Shown here: piece after piece, positions 2,010 through 42,586 of the stretch
Position numbering within the stretch: position 1 is the first letter of the stretch
Layout: the number at the start of each line of letters is the position of its first letter
Origin: a virus
Strand: one strand, 5' to 3'
IMG/VR virus record: IMGVR_UViG_3300037473_000089
Location: 1 to 43,853 of that record
Length of the DNA: 43,853 nt
Made by a program: the position numbers and the translations under genes
The notes under the pieces: generated by a model
Database searches by the model: none
What the model was told of the DNA's origin: nothing
Seen by the model: only the letters and a program-made list of their open reading frames with translations

Positions 2010-3350
2010 ATGGCTTCTCCCGACGAGTATCGCCGCGCCGCGGGATACCGCCGGTCGACGGCCGCCGGAGTGACGTCCGTCCCGGCGCCGATCGGCCACA
2101 ATAGCGGTTCCGTCCATGCTGACTGGGCTTATCAGGAGAACCCCCTCAGCGAGGGGATCGTCTTCGAAGACCTGAATGACCCGCGTCTTTCGGCCTTCCT
2201 CGGTGGCGGTCGTCAGTCTGAAGCGGGCGTGTATGTCAGCGAGCGCCTCGCGCTGCGAAACAGCACCTTCTACCGCGCCGTGAACCTCATCTCCTCGTCG
2301 ATCGGCATGTTGCCCATCCACCTGATGCGCAATCTGGAGGGCGGCGACACCGAAGAGGCGAAGGATCACCCCTTCTACGCGGTACTCAAGCAGCGGCCGA
2401 ACGATTTCCAAACGCCGCTGGAGTTCAAGAGCCACATGCAGGCGGCGGCGCTGCTCGACGGTAACGCCTACGCTCTGGTCATTCGCGGCTTCCGCGGGAA
2501 GATCATCGCGCTTGTGCCTTTGAAGCGGGGTTCGGTAACCCCCCTCCTGTCCGACGATTTCAAGCTGACGTTCCGATACAACCGGCCGAACGGGGGCGAG
2601 ACGATCCTCGCCGCGACGGAAGTCTTCCATTTCCGCTCGATGATCAGTTGCGACGGCCTGCGCGGTATCGGCCTCCTCGATGTCGCCACTCAGGCGATCG
2701 GCGTCGCCGTGCAGGCTGAGCGGGCCGCAGCCCGGCTGTTCAAGCACGGCCTGATGGCGGGCGGTGCGCTGCAAACCGACAAGACGCTCGGCGATGAGGC
2801 GATCGAGCACCTGAAGGCGAGCTTGGAGGAGCGCTATTCCGGTGCGGGCAACGCGGCGAAGTATCTGATCCTTGAAGAGGGGCTGAAACTCACTCCCTCG
2901 ACTGCCACCCCGAAGGATTCGCAGCACCTCGAAACCCGCCAGCATCAGGATGAGGAAATCTCCCGCTTTTCGGGCGTGCCGCGCCCGCTCCTCATGCTCG
3001 ACGAGACGAATTGGGGCACCGGCGTGGAGGTGCTCGGCCAGTTCTTCGTCACATATTGTCTGCTCGCTTGGTTCGTCGCGTGGGAACAGGCGATCGAGCG
3101 CTGCCTTGACCCCTCTGAGCAGGGCGTTCTCTTCGCGAAGTTCAATGATGGCGCTCTCCTGCGCGGCTCGCTGAAGGATCAGGCCGACTTCTTTGCGAAA
3201 GCGCTGGGGTCGGGCGGCAGCCAGCCATGGATGGCGGCCAACGAGGTCCGCGGAAACTTCGACCTCAACAAGATCGCAGGCGGCGAAGGCCTGCCGCCGC
3301 GCACGTCGGCCAAGCCGGCCGACCCGCAGAAGGATCCGAACAATGGATAA
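2010..3350 (+). CDS. Portal protein (HK97 family)
   Basis: 446 aa from ATG 2010 with RBS GAAGGGAGA upstream. HK97-portal-like sequence (FYRAVNLISSSIGMLPIHL, DGNAYALV). The ORF-track extension back to 1086 overlaps terL and is rejected. Confidence 0.9.
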   Translation: MASPDEYRRAAGYRRSTAAGVTSVPAPIGHNSGSVHADWAYQENPLSEGIVFEDLNDPRLSAFLGGGRQSEAGVYVSERLALRNSTFYRAVNLISSSIGMLPIHLMRNLEGGDTEEAKDHPFYAVLKQRPNDFQTPLEFKSHMQAAALLDGNAYALVIRGFRGKIIALVPLKRGSVTPLLSDDFKLTFRYNRPNGGETILAATEVFHFRSMISCDGLRGIGLLDVATQAIGVAVQAERAAARLFKHGLMAGGALQTDKTLGDEAIEHLKASLEERYSGAGNAAKYLILEEGLKLTPSTATPKDSQHLETRQHQDEEISRFSGVPRPLLMLDETNWGTGVEVLGQFFVTYCLLAWFVAWEQAIERCLDPSEQGVLFAKFNDGALLRGSLKDQADFFAKALGSGGSQPWMAANEVRGNFDLNKIAGGEGLPPRTSAKPADPQKDPNNG

Positions 3351-26709: not shown

Positions 26710-26955
26710 TTACACGGATTTTGCGGCCGTCCAGCGGCCGACCTTTACCAGATCGCCCTTAGACTGGTCGGACATGGCGATTCCACACGCGCCACCCCCG
26801 CCGCCGCTTCCAGCAAATGCCGTCTCACCGCCGACCTGGGCTATGCCGTATTTCGGGGCAGTGTGCTGGCGGTAAGCCTTCACCTTGTTCACCGGCCATG
26901 GCCGTCCGTGCTCGTCCGTCGGCCACCGCTCACTACCGTCCTCATTCCCGGTCAT
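26710..26955 (-). CDS. Hypothetical protein co-transcribed with the XRE regulator
   Basis: 81 aa with an ATGA overlap with the upstream XRE gene. A different open frame continues 26627-26758 (see findings). Confidence 0.4.
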   Translation of the reverse strand: MTGNEDGSERWPTDEHGRPWPVNKVKAYRQHTAPKYGIAQVGGETAFAGSGGGGGACGIAMSDQSKGDLVKVGRWTAAKSV

Positions 26956-27290
26956 TGGCCTGCTTCCTCCATTTCGTCAGCGCGAGCCTCCAGCAGGTCG
27001 GCGGCGATGCCAATATCGGTCGCGTCGAAACGCAGAACCTGCGCCTGCGCGCGGGCCTGCTTCGCGAGCGTAGCCGCGACGCGGATCAACTGCACGAGGT
27101 CCGACACGCGCCGATGATCCTCGCAAACGTGGAGTACCGCCAGCTCGGTGCGGCGCTCGATCGGCGCTTGCCCGCGCTCCATCTGGCCGATCGTCTCGCG
27201 GGACATCCCGATCGCGTCGGCAAGCTCTGCCTGCGACATCTTCGCCGCCTTGCGCAGGGCCTGAAGCCGCTCTCCGGTCATCGTTGGCAT
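26952..27290 (-). CDS. XRE-family helix-turn-helix transcriptional regulator
   Basis: 112 aa. LQALRKAAKMSQAELADAIGMSRETIGQMERGQ is a classic HTH_3/XRE motif. Confidence 0.8.
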   Translation of the reverse strand: MPTMTGERLQALRKAAKMSQAELADAIGMSRETIGQMERGQAPIERRTELAVLHVCEDHRRVSDLVQLIRVAATLAKQARAQAQVLRFDATDIGIAADLLEARADEMEEAGQ

Positions 27291-27312
27291 TTCTCAACCT
27301 TCGCGCTATATT
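27284..27312 (+). promoter_or_regulatory. Near-consensus sigma70-type promoter (TTGGCA-17 nt-TATATT) facing away from the XRE gene
   Basis: -35 TTGGCA at 27284-27289, overlapping the XRE start codon on the opposite strand. -10 TATATT at 27307-27312 with 17-nt spacing. Confidence 0.55.
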
Positions 27313-27318
27313 CCGAGA

Positions 27319-27535
27319 CCGGAGCCCGGTGCCGATATTTCGGTCACCGGACCCCGGTTCGGGGTTAGAAGCGGATTTCGAGGATCAGTCTGATCCGCTT
27401 CCATTTGAACCGGAGACTGAGCTTCATGGCTCGTTCTCCTGTTCGTCAGCAGGCGGGCTTGCCTCCTGACAAGACAAGTTATGAGGCCTCACCTCTCATC
27501 CGTCAATCGGAAAAGAGGGGTGGGGCCTTATTTTT
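27319..27535 (+). ncRNA. Candidate ~215-nt structured non-coding RNA (promoter-to-terminator unit), unknown class
   Basis: Lies between the promoter above and a strong intrinsic terminator. Stacked hairpins at 27326-27350, 27351-27365 and 27368-27401, plus the terminator. No ORF both starts after the predicted TSS and stops before the terminator. Confidence 0.45.
27484..27535 (+). terminator. Strong rho-independent terminator (plus strand)
   Basis: 14-bp stem AGGCCUCACCUCUC / GAGGGGUGGGGCCU that includes two G-U pairs. These pairs are valid only in the plus-strand RNA. A UAUUUUU tract follows at 27529-27535. Confidence 0.75.
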
Positions 27536-27657
27536 CGCACATTTCTCATCCGCATAATCGTTAACGCCCCGTTACAAACATGGCGCGTTCCCCCTTGTCG
27601 ACTCAGCGCGCGCCGCGATAGATGTTCCGCATCTGTTCTGGTGGCTTTGGGGGTGAC

Positions 27658-28089
27658 ATGGGGTTCAATGATTTCTGCCTCGCGGGGGTTGGCGAGCGCT
27701 TCGAAAACGAGGACGGCAGCAGCCGCCAAGAGGAATTGGCCCGATGCCAGCGCGGCGAGCATGTCCTCCTTCTGCGCGAACCCGACAATAGGCACGACCC
27801 GCGCGCGGTAGCGATCATTTCGGAGCGCGGCGTGAAGATCGGGTATCTCGGCCGCGATCGAGCCGCGTGGATGGCGAGCAAGATCGATCGAGGCCTCCCG
27901 GTTCGCGCCATCGTCGATCGCATCAAAGGCGCGCATCTGCCCGGCTCACCGCTCGGGATCGTGGTCCGCATCAACATGGACGGCGACGAACCCGAGCTGG
28001 ATGATGCCGCGCTACCCGCTCATGTGCTGGTCGGTGCGGCCGTTCGAGCCAGCGCCTCCAGCCTGCCGAACAACGTCGACCGGCGCTGA
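27658..28089 (+). CDS. Standalone HIRAN domain protein
   Basis: 143 aa. LAGVGERFENEDG...GEHVLLLREPDNRHDPRAVAIISERGVKIGYLGRDRAAWMASKIDRG matches the HIRAN signature (REP-N-x-D-x-AI... IGY). Confidence 0.7.
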   Translation: MGFNDFCLAGVGERFENEDGSSRQEELARCQRGEHVLLLREPDNRHDPRAVAIISERGVKIGYLGRDRAAWMASKIDRGLPVRAIVDRIKGAHLPGSPLGIVVRINMDGDEPELDDAALPAHVLVGAAVRASASSLPNNVDRR

Positions 28090-28445: not shown

Positions 28446-28721
28446 GCACGCGCTGCTTTCGGCGCCGCCTCGCGGGGGCGCGCTGCCTATCTCGATTCCG
28501 GGTTTCTACGCCCGCCGACGAATTAGCCCGTGAGGGGTTAACGATTCAAGCGACGAGGCTCTGCCCGTCGCCTTCGAACTGCCCCGCCACCGGCGGGGGA
28601 GACCGCTCTCAGAAAGCGGATCTCCGGTGGATGCTCTCTCCACCACGCGCGGCCGGTGTGCCGCTTGACGCCCCGCACCCGGCAAGCCGGGCGGGCACGC
28701 ATAGAGAGCACGAAATCCTAC

Positions 28722-29450
28722 ATGGAAAGCGAGACTGCGAGCGCCCCGTTCGGCGCTGCCGGCGAGAGCGTCGGCTATCTGATCCAGCCCGGCACGCGGG
28801 AGGCCTTCGGCTTCGGAGATGCCGCCTTCAGCGTCCAGATGATCGATCGCAAACTGGCGAACGGGATCATCATCGCGAACCACTACAGCCGGCGCATTTA
28901 TCTCGCCTCGACGCTGCATCTTGGCGTCTTCATCGGCCCCGATCTGGTGGGGGTGCTCCAGTACGGGTTCGCCATGAACCCGGCGAGCGCGGATAGCGTC
29001 GTGGCCGGCACGCTGATGAACGAATATCTGGAGCTCAACCGGATGTGGCTGGCGGAGGCCGCGCCCCGCAACAGCGAGAGCCGGGCGCTGGCCTATTCGA
29101 TCCGCCTGATCCGGCGCGCGCGCCCGGCGGTGAAGTGGATCCAGTCGTTCGCGGACGAGCGCTGCGGGCTATTCGGCACGGTCTATCAGGCGGCCGGCTT
29201 TACCTTCCACGGCGAGCACGTCGGGCGCTTCTGGGAGTTGGATGGCGAGTTCTATCACGATAGCCTCATGACCAACTCGAAGACGGCCAACAGCCCCCGT
29301 GCGTCGCATCTTCGGGCGAACCGTGACCGGGCCGTGATGCGGCGGCTGCGCCAGTTCCGCTACCTCCGCTTCCTCCAGCAGCGCTTCGCCAAGGGGTGTC
29401 GCCATCCGGTGCGGCCGTTCCCGAAGCCGGACTATGGCGGGCTATGTTGA
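28722..29450 (+). CDS. Mom-like (GNAT-fold) DNA-modification protein candidate
   Basis: 242 aa. The motif series ANHYSRR..., LHLGVF...LVGVLQYG, YLELNRMWL..APRNSESRAL, KWIQSFADERCG.FGTVYQAAGF resembles proteins annotated as Mom family adenine methylcarbamoylation protein. This rests on recollection, not a search. Confidence 0.45.
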   Translation: MESETASAPFGAAGESVGYLIQPGTREAFGFGDAAFSVQMIDRKLANGIIIANHYSRRIYLASTLHLGVFIGPDLVGVLQYGFAMNPASADSVVAGTLMNEYLELNRMWLAEAAPRNSESRALAYSIRLIRRARPAVKWIQSFADERCGLFGTVYQAAGFTFHGEHVGRFWELDGEFYHDSLMTNSKTANSPRASHLRANRDRAVMRRLRQFRYLRFLQQRFAKGCRHPVRPFPKPDYGGLC

Positions 29451-29724: not shown

Positions 29725-30162
29725 CTAATGCACGCTCTTCGGATCGCGACGGATCTGCTTAAGCGCCTCGGCCAGCACGGCACCGTTCGCGCGCTCGCGG
29801 GCGTCGTCGCTGTCGCTGAGCCGGTAGGCGAGCACCCCGACGATTTCGCGCGCGGCCTCGTCGATGCCGACCATGTCAGTGGCGAGGTCGACCGCGATCC
29901 TGCCGATCGCGTGCCCCTCTCGGTTCTGCTCCATCATCTGCTGGATGCGGCGATGATCGCCCAGCGATCGGACGCGGTGCTCGAGCGTCATCATGGTGCG
30001 TGCCAGGTTATCGCGCTCCGCCTCGGTCATGACGATGACCGGGCCGTCACGTCCCTCGACTGTGACCGTGGGCCAGTCGTACAGCTTGGCCGCCTCGATC
30101 GCGTGCACCGGCGGCCATTCGCTCTCTTTGGTTTCGTCGGTCACTGATCCCCCAATCTTCAC
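29725..30162 (-). CDS. Hypothetical protein co-transcribed downstream of int
   Basis: 145 aa. Its start overlaps the int stop (ATGA). Confidence 0.5.
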   Translation of the reverse strand: MKIGGSVTDETKESEWPPVHAIEAAKLYDWPTVTVEGRDGPVIVMTEAERDNLARTMMTLEHRVRSLGDHRRIQQMMEQNREGHAIGRIAVDLATDMVGIDEAAREIVGVLAYRLSDSDDARERANGAVLAEALKQIRRDPKSVH

Positions 30163-31457
30163 CTGCGCGGCGCCTCAAGTAGCGTAGCCGCCGGCAACAT
30201 CCCTTCCATCACGAGGTCGGCAAACTCCTGCCCCAGCTCGCGACGCCGTTCCATGTGCTCGTGCCTGTCATAGGCGGCAGCAACCTTATTGGGCGGGACG
30301 TGCGCCAGCATAAGCTCGATCGTCTCCAAATCGGTGACCATTCCCGCCTTGCGGGCGCGGGCCTTCATCGTCGTGGAGAACGTGGCGCGCCAGCCATGGG
30401 GTACATGTCGGCCGTGATACCCCACCCGATTGTAGAGATAGCCGATCGCGTTCTCGCTGAGCGGTCGGTGTGCGTGGCGCTGGCCGGGGAAAACCAGCTT
30501 GTTGCGGCCAGTGAGGCGCCGGGCAGCCTGAAGGACTTCGACAGCCTGCCAGCAAAGCGGGATCTGGTGCTCGAACCCGTCTTCTTCCTTGAGGTCCATC
30601 ACGAGCTTCATGCGGGCTGCCGGCACGCGCCAGAGAGCCAGAAACGGACCGTGGGCGCGAGCGTCCCAATCTACCCCCTCGATCTCTGACCACTCGACGC
30701 CGCGCACCATGCCCGGCCGGGCTTGCGTGAGGGCGAGAAAGCGCGAAGCGAGCTTCGTGAGAGGTGCCGCCCCGGACGCCTCGGCCGCGATCAGCACCTC
30801 ACGCGCCTCGGCCGGATCGGTCAGCGATGGCTGCCGGTTCTTCTTCGGCATGGGCTTGAGGGCGTCGACCACGACGGCGGCCGGGTCTTTGCTCACCACG
30901 CCCTCAGACATCTTCATCCGGTAGACGGCGGATATGCGCTGGCGCAGCCGGCGCGCCGTCTCGATCGAACCACGCTCCTCCACGGCGCGCAGGACGGCGA
31001 GCACCATGGGTTCGTCGATCAATGCCAGCGGCTTGCTGCCGAGGGCGGGGAAAACGTCCCGCTCCAAGCTGGTGATGACGTCTTCCGCGTGGACGGGCGC
31101 CCACCGGCCCTTCTGCAAGTCATGCCACTCGCGGGCGGCATCCTCGAACTTCACCAGCTTCGCCAGTTCGGCCTCTTCGCGCTGGCGCTCTTCCAGCGCC
31201 CGCTTCTTGGCGCCGGATGGATCGACGTTCTCTCGAATTAGGCGACGCGCCTCGTCGCGCTTCAGCCGAGCGTCTGACAGCTTCACGTCAGGGTAGGGGC
31301 CAAAGGTCAGCAGCTTTTCCTTGCCGCCGATCTGAAATTTCATCCGCCAGGACTTCGCGCCCTTGTTCGTGACGTAAAGATAGAGCCCGCCAGCGTCCGC
31401 CATCTTGTATGGTTTCTCGCGCGCTTCGGCTTTCCTGACCGCCGCATCCGTCAGCAT
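30159..31457 (-). CDS. int: Tyrosine integrase, P4-like (DUF4102 arm-binding N-terminus)
   Basis: 432 aa from ATG 31457. N-terminus LTDAAVRKA...KPYKMADAGGLYLYVTNKGAKSWRMKFQIGGKEKLLTFGPYP. C-terminal HGWRATFST...LAH...AAYDR provides the catalytic H-x-x-R, H and Y. Confidence 0.95.
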   Translation of the reverse strand: MLTDAAVRKAEAREKPYKMADAGGLYLYVTNKGAKSWRMKFQIGGKEKLLTFGPYPDVKLSDARLKRDEARRLIRENVDPSGAKKRALEERQREEAELAKLVKFEDAAREWHDLQKGRWAPVHAEDVITSLERDVFPALGSKPLALIDEPMVLAVLRAVEERGSIETARRLRQRISAVYRMKMSEGVVSKDPAAVVVDALKPMPKKNRQPSLTDPAEAREVLIAAEASGAAPLTKLASRFLALTQARPGMVRGVEWSEIEGVDWDARAHGPFLALWRVPAARMKLVMDLKEEDGFEHQIPLCWQAVEVLQAARRLTGRNKLVFPGQRHAHRPLSENAIGYLYNRVGYHGRHVPHGWRATFSTTMKARARKAGMVTDLETIELMLAHVPPNKVAAAYDRHEHMERRRELGQEFADLVMEGMLPAATLLEAPRR

Positions 31458-31458
31458 G

Positions 31459-31753
31459 ATACCCCGACCTCCAGATTCGCTACCCCGATTTCCACCCCTG
31501 ATACCCCTGCGCTTCGGGGGTATCGATTGGGACTGATCGGGACGGACCTTAGCACAAGACCCCCTGAAAATCAGGGGGTTTGGGATCATTTGGGGCTGGA
31601 AGAAACGGCATTCTGGCGGAGACGGAGCCCGTCACAAGATGGGCATAAAATGGCGGATTTCCGCCTTTTCCTCAATGTGAGGTAAAGCATATACCCCGAC
31701 ATGTACCCCCGTCCCATTTCGGGCATTTTTGCGGGGTATCTGATCATACCCCG
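31459..31753. other. attP region with arm-type octamer repeats (ATACCCCG)
   Basis: Copies or variants at 31459, 31481, 31501, 31517(rc), 31691, 31704, 31732(rc) and 31746 form two clusters around a ~165-bp centre. That centre holds the hairpin CCCCCTGA-aaa-TCAGGGGG (31560-31578) and TGGCGGAGACGGAG (31614-31627). Confidence 0.6.
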
Positions 31754-37708: not shown

Positions 37709-37761
37709 AGATTAGCCTCATGGCTATAATTCGTAAACCCTGTTTTTTAGCCACTCGGCTA
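37709..37761 (-). promoter_or_regulatory. OL/PL-like region: two TAGCC-N4-GGCTA operators plus a candidate leftward promoter
   Basis: Operators at 37713-37726 (TAGCCtcatGGCTA) and 37748-37761 (TAGCCactcGGCTA). On the minus strand, -35 TTTACG at 37737-37732 and -10 TAATCT at 37714-37709 with a 17-nt spacer. Confidence 0.55.
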
Positions 37762-37764
37762 TTT

Positions 37765-38370
37765 TTACATTCGCGAGGCCTGCCACGTAACTCGCCCGAT
37801 AACGGTAAATGGCTCGCGCCCTAGCACGATCTCCTTATGCATCGGGTTGGAGGAGCACGGCTCGAGCCTAGGGGGATCGGATCGAAAGCGCTTGAAAGTA
37901 GATTCGCCCTCGCCGTTCTGGATCGCGTAAATGCGCCCGTCCAAGAGCTCGAACTGGTCAGGGTCAACCACGATCATGCTGTTTGGCCCGACAACGAGGT
38001 CCATGCTGTCCCCGTCAGGAATCAATCCGAACGCATTTGGCCCGGAGCCAGGAGCCGGTAGCCAGGCCTCGGGATCGCCGGCCGCCACAGCTTCTTTCCA
38101 GCTCCCTGCCGCGATCCTTCCAAGCAGCGGCACCATCGTCACAGGCTTATGCTTTGGTGCTCCATCAACGATGTCGCCAGGCGCCACATCGAGAGCCTTC
38201 GCGATTTGGTCGCGCAGATCTGATGAAAGGCCGCGCATTGATCGTTCGATCTTCGCGATGGTTGTGAAGTGGACACCGATTAGGTTGCCGAGCTGCTCCA
38301 TCGAGAGCCCCTTTTCCCGCCTGAGTAGGCGGATGCGCTCGCCGGGTGTGTCGCCAGTCGTCGGGTCCAT
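37765..38370 (-). CDS. cI-like repressor (XRE HTH plus S24 LexA-type autopeptidase)
   Basis: 201 aa from ATG 38370 with RBS AAGGAGGT. HTH region IRLLRREKGLSMEQLGNLIGVHFTTIAKIER. S24 part GDSMDLVVGPNSMIVVD...TFKRF provides the Ser/Lys dyad context. Confidence 0.85.
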   Translation of the reverse strand: MDPTTGDTPGERIRLLRREKGLSMEQLGNLIGVHFTTIAKIERSMRGLSSDLRDQIAKALDVAPGDIVDGAPKHKPVTMVPLLGRIAAGSWKEAVAAGDPEAWLPAPGSGPNAFGLIPDGDSMDLVVGPNSMIVVDPDQFELLDGRIYAIQNGEGESTFKRFRSDPPRLEPCSSNPMHKEIVLGREPFTVIGRVTWQASRM

Positions 38371-38391
38371 AACGTACCTCCTTACTCTCCA

Positions 38392-38467
38392 TAGCCGCTT
38401 GGCTAAATTGCGCAATGCAACAAGAGAGTTAATAGGCTATTGCTCAATTTAGCCTTTTGGCTAGAAT
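38392..38467. promoter_or_regulatory. OR-like region: two TAGCC-N4-GGCTA operators and a rightward promoter
   Basis: Operators at 38392-38405 (TAGCCgcttGGCTA) and 38450-38463 (TAGCCttttGGCTA). -35 TTGCTC at 38440-38445 and -10 TAGAAT at 38462-38467 with a 16-nt spacer. Confidence 0.6.
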
Positions 38468-38473
38468 GCTCGC

Positions 38474-38695
38474 ATGAACAAGCTAGCCACCTACCTCTTA
38501 AAAGAGGGCATTTCGTACGCGGAGATGGCCCGTCGCGTTGGCACGAAGCACGCCCGCACCGTAGAGCGGCACGCGAAGGGCAAGCGCATTCCTGACGGCA
38601 AAATGATGGCCGCCTACCTTCGCGAGACCAAAGGCACCGTTCAGCCTTCAGACTTCTTCGCCCTTACTGAGCCCGCCCTCCGGGCAGCGGAGTAA
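38474..38695 (+). CDS. Cro/CII-like small HTH protein (possibly leaderless mRNA)
   Basis: 73 aa. ISYAEMARRVGTKHARTVERHAKGKR. Divergent from the repressor. The ATG lies 7 nt after the -10 box and has no Shine-Dalgarno sequence. Confidence 0.55.
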   Translation: MNKLATYLLKEGISYAEMARRVGTKHARTVERHAKGKRIPDGKMMAAYLRETKGTVQPSDFFALTEPALRAAE

Positions 38696-38700
38696 ACCGC

Positions 38701-40110
38701 ATGGCCGCTTTGCCGGGCGATGGCGGGGCGCAGCAGATGGAGCTTCCGACCCACCTGCACGACGCTGAGCTTGAGATGGCGCTGATCGGCGCCCTCTTGT
38801 CCAATAACAATCAGGTCGATCGAGTTGCCGATAGCCTGACGGCCGAAGACTTCGGCGATCCTCTTCTTGCTGACATCTACCGGGTGATCGTGCGCGAGGT
38901 CGCCGCTGGGCGCGACGCGATCGTCCCCACCATCGCACCGATGTTCGCTGGCAACCCCGGCTTCGAGCAGATCGGCGGGCGACATTCGCTTGTCACATGG
39001 TCGATGTCGGTCATCGTCAACTCACAGCCCGCCACGAACTTCTCGAAGGCCATCAAGGAAGTGGCGAACCGCCGCCGCCTTTGGCTGGCGATGCAGGCAT
39101 CGATGCGGGCGCTTGAGGATCCGGCGGCGCCGGTGGCAGACATCATGTCGCAGCACGAGGCGGACCTCTCGTCCTTTACTGGGGAATCGTCCGAGGCTGT
39201 CTTCCACTCGGCCGCCGATTGCGTCGACGAGGTAATCGCCAGCTTCAACCGGCCGCGCAACGGCGTCACCAGCGGCACCGTGGAGGGCATGGATCGCCTG
39301 CTCGGAGCGATCAGGCCCGGTTGGCTCGGCATCGTCGCGGCGCGGCCCGGCATGGGCAAGACGGCCGCGCTTCTGAGCTATTTCCGCGGCGCGGCATCTC
39401 GCGGCCATCACAGCCTGTATTTCAGCCTAGAAGTGGGTTGGGAGACGCTCAGCACGCGTGTGGTGTCGGACGCTGCCTACGCGGCTGGGAAGCCGATCCT
39501 GTACGATGCGATCGTCAACGCAACCGTGCAGCCGCACCACCAGCGTGAAATCTGCCGCCTGCGCGATGAGATCGAGAGCCTGCCGCTGCATGTTGTCGAT
39601 AAGGACTGCCACACGATCGGCGGCGTAAGGCGACAAATCCGCCGCTACAAGCGGTGGCTGGCCGCCAAGGGCAAAAAGCTCGAACTGGTCGTCATCGACT
39701 ATCTCCAGCTGCTCTCGCCCGACCAGCAAGGCCTGTCCGATACTGAAGCCGTCTCGCGGATCAGTCGCGCACTGAAGGTGATGGCGGTGGAGGAGGAGGT
39801 CGCGATCATCGCCGCTGCCCAGCTCAACCGCGAGGTCGAGAAGCGTGAGGACAAGCGTCCGACGCTCTCCGACCTGCGCAGCAGCGGGCAGATCGAAGCC
39901 GACGCCGATTTCGTCGTCTTCCTGCTCAGCCAGGAATATTACCACCGCGCCGCCCGGCCGCGGGACGAGCACGACCCGAAATATGCCGAGTGGGAGGAGC
40001 GCCTGCGGCTCGTCGAGAACGAGCTGGAGTTCATCCTCGCCAAATTCCGCCACGGCAGCATCGGCAACTTCTTCGGCCGCTTCTTCCGCGACTATCAGGC
40101 GGTGCGCTGA
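38701..40110 (+). CDS. dnaB: Replicative DNA helicase (DnaB family)
   Basis: 469 aa. N-terminal HDAELEMALIGALLSNN, Walker A ARPGMGKTA, Walker B LVVIDYLQLL, and later LNREVEKREDKRPTLSDLRSSGQIEADAD. Confidence 0.85.
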   Translation: MAALPGDGGAQQMELPTHLHDAELEMALIGALLSNNNQVDRVADSLTAEDFGDPLLADIYRVIVREVAAGRDAIVPTIAPMFAGNPGFEQIGGRHSLVTWSMSVIVNSQPATNFSKAIKEVANRRRLWLAMQASMRALEDPAAPVADIMSQHEADLSSFTGESSEAVFHSAADCVDEVIASFNRPRNGVTSGTVEGMDRLLGAIRPGWLGIVAARPGMGKTAALLSYFRGAASRGHHSLYFSLEVGWETLSTRVVSDAAYAAGKPILYDAIVNATVQPHHQREICRLRDEIESLPLHVVDKDCHTIGGVRRQIRRYKRWLAAKGKKLELVVIDYLQLLSPDQQGLSDTEAVSRISRALKVMAVEEEVAIIAAAQLNREVEKREDKRPTLSDLRSSGQIEADADFVVFLLSQEYYHRAARPRDEHDPKYAEWEERLRLVENELEFILAKFRHGSIGNFFGRFFRDYQAVR

Positions 40111-42431: not shown

Positions 42432-42508
42432 AGTGCCGTAGAGCAGTCCGGTAGCTCGCCAGTCTCATAAACTGGAGGTCTCGGGTTCAAATCCCGACGG
42501 CGCAACCA
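42432..42508 (+). tRNA. tRNA with CAU anticodon (Met, or Ile2 if modified) and initiator-like features
   Basis: Hand-folded cloverleaf of 77 nt. D arm GAGC-AGTCCGGTA-GCTC, anticodon arm CCAGT-CTCATAA-ACTGG, T arm TCGGG-TTCAAAT-CCCGA, 3' end GCAACCA. Position 1:72 is an A x A mismatch. Confidence 0.75.
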
Positions 42509-42511
42509 TTC

Positions 42512-42586
42512 GCCCAGGTAGCTCAGCGGTAGAGCAGCCGCCTCGTAAGCGGCAGGTCGTCGGTTCGATCCCGACCGTGGGCTCCA
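42512..42586 (+). tRNA. tRNA-Thr (anticodon CGU)
   Basis: Hand-folded, 75 nt. GCCCAGG-TA-GCTC-AGCGGTA-GAGC-A-GCCGC-CTCGTAA-GCGGC-AGGTC-GTCGG-TTCGATC-CCGAC-CGTGGGC-T-CCA, with one G-G mismatch at 6:67. Confidence 0.75.

Follow-up and report, generated by a model that had tools for sequence, protein, structure and literature searches.

The intergenic region between an XRE-family helix-turn-helix (HTH) regulator gene and a gene encoding a HIRAN-only protein in a viral genome (IMG/VR record IMGVR_UViG_3300037473_000089, 43,853 nt, the whole of which is called the window below) carries a structured unit, bounded by a promoter and a terminator, at positions 27284-27535. The feature is real and conserved and, judged by sequence comparison, fits cis-antisense control of a small open reading frame (ORF) located on the opposite strand; it belongs to no Rfam, NCBIfam or PADLOC family. 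We propose that the unit is probably a cis-antisense RNA (a countertranscript of ~215 nt) controlling an autoregulated operon composed of the small ORF and the XRE gene. A previous, sequence-only reading of the window had recognized the unit itself; it overlooked the small ORF on the minus strand (the RNA's probable target), a minus-strand promoter embedded in the terminator, and the fact that the terminator arms are probably operators of the XRE protein.

Results

The plus-strand promoter (P+) is a near-consensus TTGGCA-17-TATATT at 27284-27312, just as the sequence-only reading had it: the -35 hexamer TTGGCA (27284-27289) overlaps the XRE start codon (CAT, 27288-27290) and is separated by 17 nt from the -10 hexamer TATATT (27307-27312). 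It is the sole sigma-70-type match between 26000 and 29000, where 0.5 would be expected. The predicted countertranscript (~217 nt, 27319-27535, plus strand) runs from a start placed by consensus to the T-run. The previous reading considered this unit self-contained and its ~215-nt RNA highly structured, and folding agreed: the 27319-27535 sequence reaches -115.3 kcal/mol against -75.9 +/- 5.1 kcal/mol for dinucleotide shuffles (z -7.7), none of 200 shuffles being as good. The predicted fold consists of six consecutive hairpins. Those at 27326-27350 (H1), 27351-27365 (H2) and 27368-27401 (H3) had been placed correctly before, and two additional ones were found at 27407-27444 (H4) and 27445-27470 (H5). 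The plus RNA begins with H1 and H2, which on the minus-strand mRNA make up the spacer from the small-ORF stop to the XRE start; H3 lies within the small ORF, H4 holds its Shine-Dalgarno sequence and start codon, and H5 is the 5'-terminal hairpin of the predicted minus mRNA. The sixth hairpin is the strong terminator announced by the previous reading (27481-27535, plus strand), with a 17-pair stem that includes three G-U pairs, a 4-pair inner stem (hairpin 27481-27531) and the run TTTTT at 27531-27535. A GC-rich hairpin followed by a U-run on the transcribed strand, the signature of an intrinsic terminator, is therefore found in the window, and a simple terminator scan missed it because its loop is long and structured. 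Membership of a known RNA family, which the sequence-only reading had left to an Rfam search, was not found: nothing but tRNAs reached the gathering threshold in the window and ten homologous loci, and the best sub-threshold match in the region scored 20.9 bits for a threshold of 53.1.

Homologous loci were collected through searches using the XRE protein or a back-translated MERGQAPIE pattern and through look-ups of exact proteins; nhmmer confirmed the matches. They comprise 14 long-form sequences from 11 lineages (the window and L096; L005; L001; L097; L100; L099; L103; L089; L091; and L002, L003, L093 and L095), in all of which the element lies divergent from an XRE homologue, with 42-89% identity within the element. 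A scan of genome collections with an XRE alignment was swamped by unrelated XRE genes and yielded 2-3 useful loci, a blastn search against GenBank phages and plasmids gave no match, and a search for loci through HIRAN in viral contigs found nothing. Conservation of the hairpins in homologues had been set beforehand as a test of the RNA, and it was observed throughout: every homologous copy folds beyond its shuffles (z -5.9 to -10.9 across the 11 lineages), and five hairpins other than the terminator, unrelated in sequence, are kept as structures at 42-60% identity. The terminator arms are complementary in all lineages (-23 to -38 kcal/mol) and are followed by a U-rich tail in 10 of 11. The P+ -35 reads TTGCAT or TTGGCA in all 14 sequences, with a TAnnnT/C hexamer 17 nt away in 13 of them; at L001 the best script score falls on a hexamer at 16 nt (TTAAAT), and TAAATT sits at 17 nt.

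The statement of the sequence-only reading that the unit contains no ORF holds for the plus strand and fails for the minus strand, where a conserved 20-codon ORF occupies 27365-27427. This small ORF (20 codons and a stop, MKLSLRFKWKRIRLILEIRF) starts with an ATG at 27427, ends with a TAA at 27367-27365 and is preceded by a Shine-Dalgarno sequence, AGGAG (27436-27440, minus strand), located 8 nt before the ATG and paired within H4 to codons 5-6; an in-frame TGA stands six codons upstream of the ATG in the window. An ORF of 20-22 codons with an ATG, a Shine-Dalgarno sequence 4-9 nt upstream and a conserved stop is present in 11 of 11 lineages, and the encoded peptides align without frameshifts or stops. 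Pairwise differences at codon positions 1, 2 and 3 amount to 0.55, 0.32 and 0.41, respectively. Eight columns of the peptide alignment are hydrophobic in nearly all sequences, with polar or basic columns between them, and a T occupies the second position in about 94 of the 96 codons of these eight columns (counted by eye), the first position being variable. Taken together, the codon-position differences and the hydrophobic columns constitute a coding signature for the small ORF, which also explains why insertions and deletions occur in multiples of three. An acidic peptide on the plus strand (..LEADFEDQSDPLPFEPE..), which seemed conserved on visual inspection, was rejected as a candidate: it has no start or Shine-Dalgarno sequence, its ends vary and L089 has an in-frame TAG. 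A second minus-strand ORF (27306-27404, MEADQTD.., 32 aa) was rejected because it is not conserved.

The small-ORF peptides carry a net charge of +1 to +8, and their mean hydropathy ranges from -0.35 to 1.1. In 10 of the 11 the hydrophobic moment at 170 degrees is greater than that at 100 degrees, and it exceeds 1.3 in nine, a residue pattern that suggests beta-strand rather than helix periodicity in these 9 of 11 peptides. Compared with NCBIfam and PADLOC, the peptides matched no family.

A minus-strand promoter for the small ORF and XRE gene (P-, 27478-27506) can be placed within the terminator, its -35 TTGACG (27506->27501) lying in the terminator loop and its -10 CATAAC (27483->27478) following after a 17-nt spacer. 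The proposal that the RNA is antisense to the XRE leader is thereby supported, since the two transcripts would overlap by ~150 nt. All 14 long-form sequences show the arrangement TTGNNN-17-(T/C)A... on the minus strand, 48-73 nt before the small-ORF ATG. Two palindromes flank the P- -35: O1, ATGAG-N9-CTCAT (27481-27499), is the 5' arm of the terminator and covers the P- spacer and -10, and O2, AAGAGGGGTGGGGCCTTAT (27513-27531), is the 3' arm and lies upstream of the P- -35; both would be XRE operators. The class of the arms changes with the recognition helix of the XRE protein: ATGAG-N9-CTCAT (the window, L096, L097 and, less perfectly, L001) goes with SRETIG, GATARG-N3-CYTATC (L002, L005, L091, L100, L103 and L099) with SRV(L/S)(I/V)G or SRPTIG, and AGGAA-N5-TTCCT (L089) with SEKFVG. 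On the simplest interpretation of this correlation, the arms are probably XRE operators, and the placement of O1 and O2 suggests a layout for autorepression. Further copies of the operator were not found in the window, including at P+.

Three loci carry a short form of the region (L092, L094 and L008), in which the promoter-plus-palindromes module stands alone, with the same P- arrangement directly upstream of the XRE gene, 35-60 nt away. These loci are without the small ORF, the P+ promoter and the RNA body; the absence of the P+ -10 from all three was established by reading the sequences by eye. Their palindromes have mismatched centres (-11 to -18 kcal/mol), and a T-run follows in one of three. 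Thus, P+, the small ORF and a good plus-strand terminator occur together, and it is from this co-occurrence, our chief argument, that we conclude that the plus RNA would exist to act on the small ORF.

The transcript expected from P- would start at ~27471, about 7 nt past its -10, and H5 begins some 1 nt later. In the predicted minus mRNA, a hairpin is found at the very 5' end in 11 of 11 lineages; in 10 of them the Shine-Dalgarno sequence of the small ORF pairs with codons 5-6 in H4, and the region of XRE initiation is largely unpaired. The small-ORF stop (27365) and the XRE ATG (27290) are 74 nt apart, with H2 and H1 between them. Folded as its minus strand, the unit does just as well (z -8.5), and neither strand folds consistently better across the homologues, whether G-U counts or folding energies are compared. 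The sequence-only reading had taken G-U pairs as a sign that selection acts on the plus strand; this stands for the window terminator (three G-U pairs, -35.8 kcal/mol on the plus strand and -24.3 on the minus strand) and fails beyond it. Covariation was clearest in H5, where 91% of the cells are paired and five of eight pairs are changed on both sides, a level reached by 0 of 500 shuffles, although nearly all these double-sided changes come from one lineage, L103. RNAalifold recovered H3, H4 and H5 in the subgroup of the window; when it was run on MAFFT alignments of four separate segments, three yielded no consensus. With a covariance model derived from the same subgroup, H5 aligned well, and H3 and H4 of the distant lineages poorly.

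The gene found downstream of the terminator varies from locus to locus: it encodes a HIRAN protein, an SRAP protein or a D12 methyltransferase, or it is convergent, or a tRNA takes its place, with HNH and small terminase genes behind it. The element therefore belongs with the XRE gene and not with HIRAN, and the functional tie to HIRAN that had been considered is not upheld. At L103 (2011-2778), an XRE/small-ORF/RNA cassette of ~620 bp is located between tRNA-Gly and tRNA-Thr genes, ahead of the genes for HNH and the small terminase. In the window it comes after the lysis genes, and the place comparable to the L103 site is held by a tRNA-Met and tRNA-Thr pair. Comparison of these two sites suggests that the cassette inserts as a unit, and it behaves as a self-contained, movable one.

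Discussion

A working scheme may be drawn from these data. P-, embedded in the terminator of the opposing transcript, would drive an mRNA made of the 5' hairpin H5, the small ORF with its Shine-Dalgarno sequence held in a hairpin, two GC-rich hairpins and the XRE gene. The XRE protein would bind O1 and O2 and repress its own promoter. The near-consensus P+ would fire head-on at P-, the two promoters being ~150 nt apart, and its RNA would be complementary to the 5' untranslated region, the ribosome-binding site and the full coding sequence of the small ORF before ending at the hairpin encoded by the two operators. As a result, the small ORF would be kept silent and XRE expression dampened, because the RNA duplex would block ribosomes and offer a substrate to a double-strand RNase and because the face-to-face promoters would interfere with each other, as convergent promoters can do (PMC5001618). 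The cationic peptide, with its beta-amphipathic pattern, would be the probable effector.

What the peptide does may be guessed at. Our leading guess is a toxin-like effector acting in the manner of a type I toxin-antitoxin system, which we favour because the mRNA would be inert and 5'-protected, because the antisense cover is complete and because the cassette is mobile and phage-borne. A small anti-repressor, or another regulatory protein, comes second. A mere leader for translational coupling is ranked last because of the structured gap of 74 nt and the conserved residue pattern. A bolder proposal, which we put forward tentatively and regard as possible though rather doubtful, is that these elements make up an undescribed three-part cassette of alphaproteobacterial temperate phages: an autorepressing, Cro-sized XRE protein, a leader-encoded, cationic peptide of 20-22 aa with a beta-amphipathic pattern, and a full-length antisense RNA whose terminator stem consists of the two repressor operators on either side of the sense -35. 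The cassette would move among genome positions as one unit and serve as a new sort of type I toxin-antitoxin or abortive-infection module, or else trigger induction independently of cI.

Several points weigh against antisense control as we propose it. Both transcription starts (~27319 on the plus strand and ~27471 on the minus strand) are deduced from consensus matches. By E. coli rules the -10 hexamers of P- (CATAAC, TATCAA, TATCTA) are weak, and a promoter scan did not call them; the P- hexamers are near the alphaproteobacterial housekeeping consensus known from Caulobacter, TTGACGS ... GCTANAWC. The -35 of P+ overlaps the first XRE codons (Met-Gln, read as TTGCAT), and part of its conservation may be a coding constraint of XRE. 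Formal covariation is modest outside H5, because the hairpins of divergent lineages lie in different registers. The L099 terminator has no U-run and an SRAP gene comes next; given the co-oriented genes found downstream, there may be read-through past the terminator. The peptide is insufficiently hydrophobic for a transmembrane helix, unlike typical type I toxins. Finally, as no consistent strand bias was found, the hairpins could serve the minus mRNA alone. The rival account that goes with this last point, in which only the minus strand matters, would take the hairpins as leader structure of the small-ORF/XRE mRNA (5' stabiliser, Shine-Dalgarno trap and spacers), with an incidental or weak P+ and no functional antisense RNA. 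It draws on the minus fold equalling or beating the plus fold in several lineages, on the 5' hairpin and the Shine-Dalgarno trap, which belong to the minus strand, and on the -35 of P+, which is partly fixed by the XRE start codons. We nevertheless find it unlikely: the -10 of P+, which is non-coding, keeps its 17-nt distance in all but one of the long-form sequences and is absent from the ORF-less short forms, the complementary central spacers and the plus-strand U-run are confined to the long forms, whereas a promoter-operator role needs neither, and the three G-U pairs of the window terminator become A-C mismatches on the minus strand.

The plus transcript might also be a long leader and attenuator for cargo genes (HIRAN, SRAP and others), comparable to the lambda PR'-tR' 6S RNA and working by read-through or antitermination, possibly gated by an XRE roadblock. 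The promoter and the terminator behind it are indeed both strong, a co-oriented gene starts 60-130 nt past the terminator in most loci, the terminator devoid of a U-run at L099 stands ahead of the SRAP gene and the L103 unit faces a tRNA and then HNH and small terminase genes. Yet the unit is intact at L005, where the next gene is convergent and runs up to the terminator, co-oriented genes are lacking in the vicinity at L100 and L003, the identity of the cargo is not conserved and candidate cargo promoters lie past the terminator (TTGTCG..TAGATG at ~27587-27616 in the window, TTGCAG-17-TATGTT at L002). Since it also leaves unexplained why P+ occurs solely with the small ORF, attenuation seems improbable to us. 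It is very unlikely that the element works at the DNA level only, with operator palindromes, perhaps other protein sites or cruciforms, mimicking hairpins and no RNA function on either strand: the arms are operator-type palindromes and are found in short forms without good hairpin complementarity, but the five other hairpins are kept at 42-60% identity, H5 shows compensatory changes, the central spacers of the long forms are complementary and a translated ORF with a Shine-Dalgarno sequence needs an mRNA. Least probable of all, in our view, is a trans-acting small RNA, or an RNA component of a defence or anti-defence system with HIRAN. The region is one of accessory genes and HIRAN matches a candidate defence component, PDC-M03B, at the domain level; however, HIRAN is unlinked to the RNA across loci, a search for targets elsewhere in the window found chance-level complementarity only and no Rfam or PADLOC family fits.

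The proposed antisense control has several relatives among known systems. Type I toxins are typically shorter than 60 aa (PMC11264685) and prophage-borne type I pairs include hokW/sokW (PMC8621323). The cassette resembles type I systems of the Ibs/Sib style by its very small ORF (20-22 aa), by a cis-antisense RNA with a predicted promoter and terminator of its own that spans the 5' untranslated region, the ribosome-binding site and the coding sequence, by the predicted 5' hairpin and sequestered Shine-Dalgarno sequence of its mRNA and by its mobile, phage-borne nature. It differs in that a cationic peptide, whose residues alternate in a beta-type pattern, takes the place of a hydrophobic helix, in that the ORF would be co-transcribed with an autorepressor and in that there is no homology to catalogued families.

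In plasmid copy control, as in R1 (copB-tap-repA with CopA RNA) and pMV158 (copG-repB with RNA II) (PMC5717011), a single transcript is likewise controlled twice, by a small repressor protein and by a countertranscript made constitutively. The antisense RNA of R1 prevents a short leader ORF from being translated, much as proposed here. The leader ORF of R1 is translationally coupled, whereas here 74 nt and two strong hairpins intervene and the XRE ribosome-binding site is not visibly sequestered; moreover, the residue pattern of the peptide is conserved, which coupling alone would not require. The regulated product would be the repressor itself here and is a replication protein in the plasmids.

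Phage modules pairing a transcription factor with a small ORF have been described in which the small protein inactivates cI and its ORF, of 156-183 nt, points away from the regulator gene and is activated by the regulator (Silpe et al., bioRxiv 10.1101/2022.09.16.508337). The common features are an accessory XRE-type regulator beside an unannotated small ORF, in a temperate phage and away from cI. The ORF described here is only 63 nt long, shares its strand and its predicted transcript with the XRE gene, which it precedes, and has putative operators whose position suggests repression; it would also be covered by an antisense RNA, of which the part of Silpe et al. considered here makes no mention for their modules.

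The sequence-only reading had evoked an antisense regulator of the sar/oop kind. As to mechanism, a cis-antisense RNA over a ribosome-binding site, the comparison is apt; it does not extend to an immunity RNA of the main switch, the CI region lying at 37.7-38.5 kb, nor to family membership. The P22 immI region (Arc, Ant and sar RNA) and lambda oop provide cis-antisense RNAs of temperate phages, ~69-77 nt long. As there, the antisense promoter faces the sense promoter, the ribosome-binding site is covered and the operon includes a small autorepressor; unlike there, the RNA is ~215 nt long, its target is a 20-aa ORF, it is located outside the main immunity region and no sequence relation exists. 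Face-to-face promoters are also found in IS10 (pIN/pOUT and RNA-OUT) and in coliphages 186 and P2, which share with the cassette head-on promoters overlapping at the 5' end of the sense mRNA and the combination of antisense pairing with transcriptional interference. To our knowledge, no described system has an antisense terminator that coincides with the sense promoter and its operators.

If our proposal is true, the cassette would add a small-protein/antisense-RNA module from what are probably Sphingomonadaceae (Alphaproteobacteria), a group not dealt with in the type I toxin-antitoxin literature that we found, and a peptide unlike the usual membrane-helix toxins. Its design would be economical, a single 55-bp stretch serving as promoter, operator pair and terminator of the opposing transcript. 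More generally, the call of a structured non-coding RNA can conceal a conserved, unannotated mini-gene on the opposite strand.

Genomic context and additional observations

The window, with a G+C content of 65%, is probably a temperate phage. After the large terminase gene (181-1998), the plus strand carries the structural and lysis genes as far as ~26.6 kb; next comes the XRE gene (26952-27290, minus strand; 112 aa, or 109 aa in the database gene call), the last gene of the putative small-ORF/XRE transcript. The HIRAN gene (27658-28089) probably starts at ATG 27658 rather than at 27622. Further on are a Mom-like gene (28656-29450), a P4-type integrase gene (30159-31589, minus strand) with an AlpA-like gene in the same part, a CI-like repressor gene (37765-38415, minus strand), a DnaB-like helicase gene (38701-40110) and, after the DnaB block, the adjacent tRNA-Met and tRNA-Thr genes (42432-42586). 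ARAGORN also called a tRNA-Arg at 3232-3320 (minus strand), amid structural genes, which the Rfam tRNA model missed and which is probably a false positive. The terminase is nearest, among cultured phages, to that of Azospirillum phage Cd (42% identity). The nearest relatives of the XRE protein are from Sphingomonas and other Sphingomonadaceae, and among phages a tblastn search with its core gave matches of no more than 53% identity over the greater part of the query, none of them a close relative.

A search allowing one mismatch for the palindrome TAGCC-N4-GGCTA, for which 0.6 sites would be expected, returned four perfect copies around the CI-like gene (37713-37726, 37748-37761, 38392-38405 and 38450-38463). 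They are probably the operators of the main lysis-lysogeny switch of the phage, and none was found near the cassette (~27.3 kb). A small Cro-like ORF begins near 38476, beside the CI-like repressor gene.

The XRE gene is overlapped at its stop codon, by 4 nt (ATGA), by an 81-aa ORF (26710-26955, minus strand) that has an 83-aa counterpart in L096 (1384-1635), is absent from the other lineages and has no match in Pfam, PHROGs, NCBIfam or PADLOC. The XRE proteins of lineages without this ORF are only 61-70 aa long.

The genes beside the cassette vary, and most of them have to do with damage to DNA or its modification. HIRAN-only proteins adjoin it in the window, L096, L002 and L093, SRAP/YedK-like proteins in L005 (1-630) and L099 (1173-2168), a D12 methyltransferase in L097 (1298-1816) and a Rha-family protein in L100 (102-878), and the Mom gene of the window (28656-29450) may be added to these. 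The site may be a hotspot for accessory genes in these phages.

Two more XRE homologues were met in other settings. In Sphingomonas fennica (L006, 2419-2487), a close homologue has another leader, with an unrelated ORF of 19-22 codons, M(ENM)PILVNRFLPFLTRTALRL, inside which a small hairpin precedes UUUUU; it may act as an attenuator and represent a third type of XRE leader. In JGI sample 3300047160 (P0011), the gene for a 75-aa homologue (66% identity over the HTH) lies between those for RNase III (rnc) and an era-like protein, a setting that looks chromosomal rather than phage-borne.

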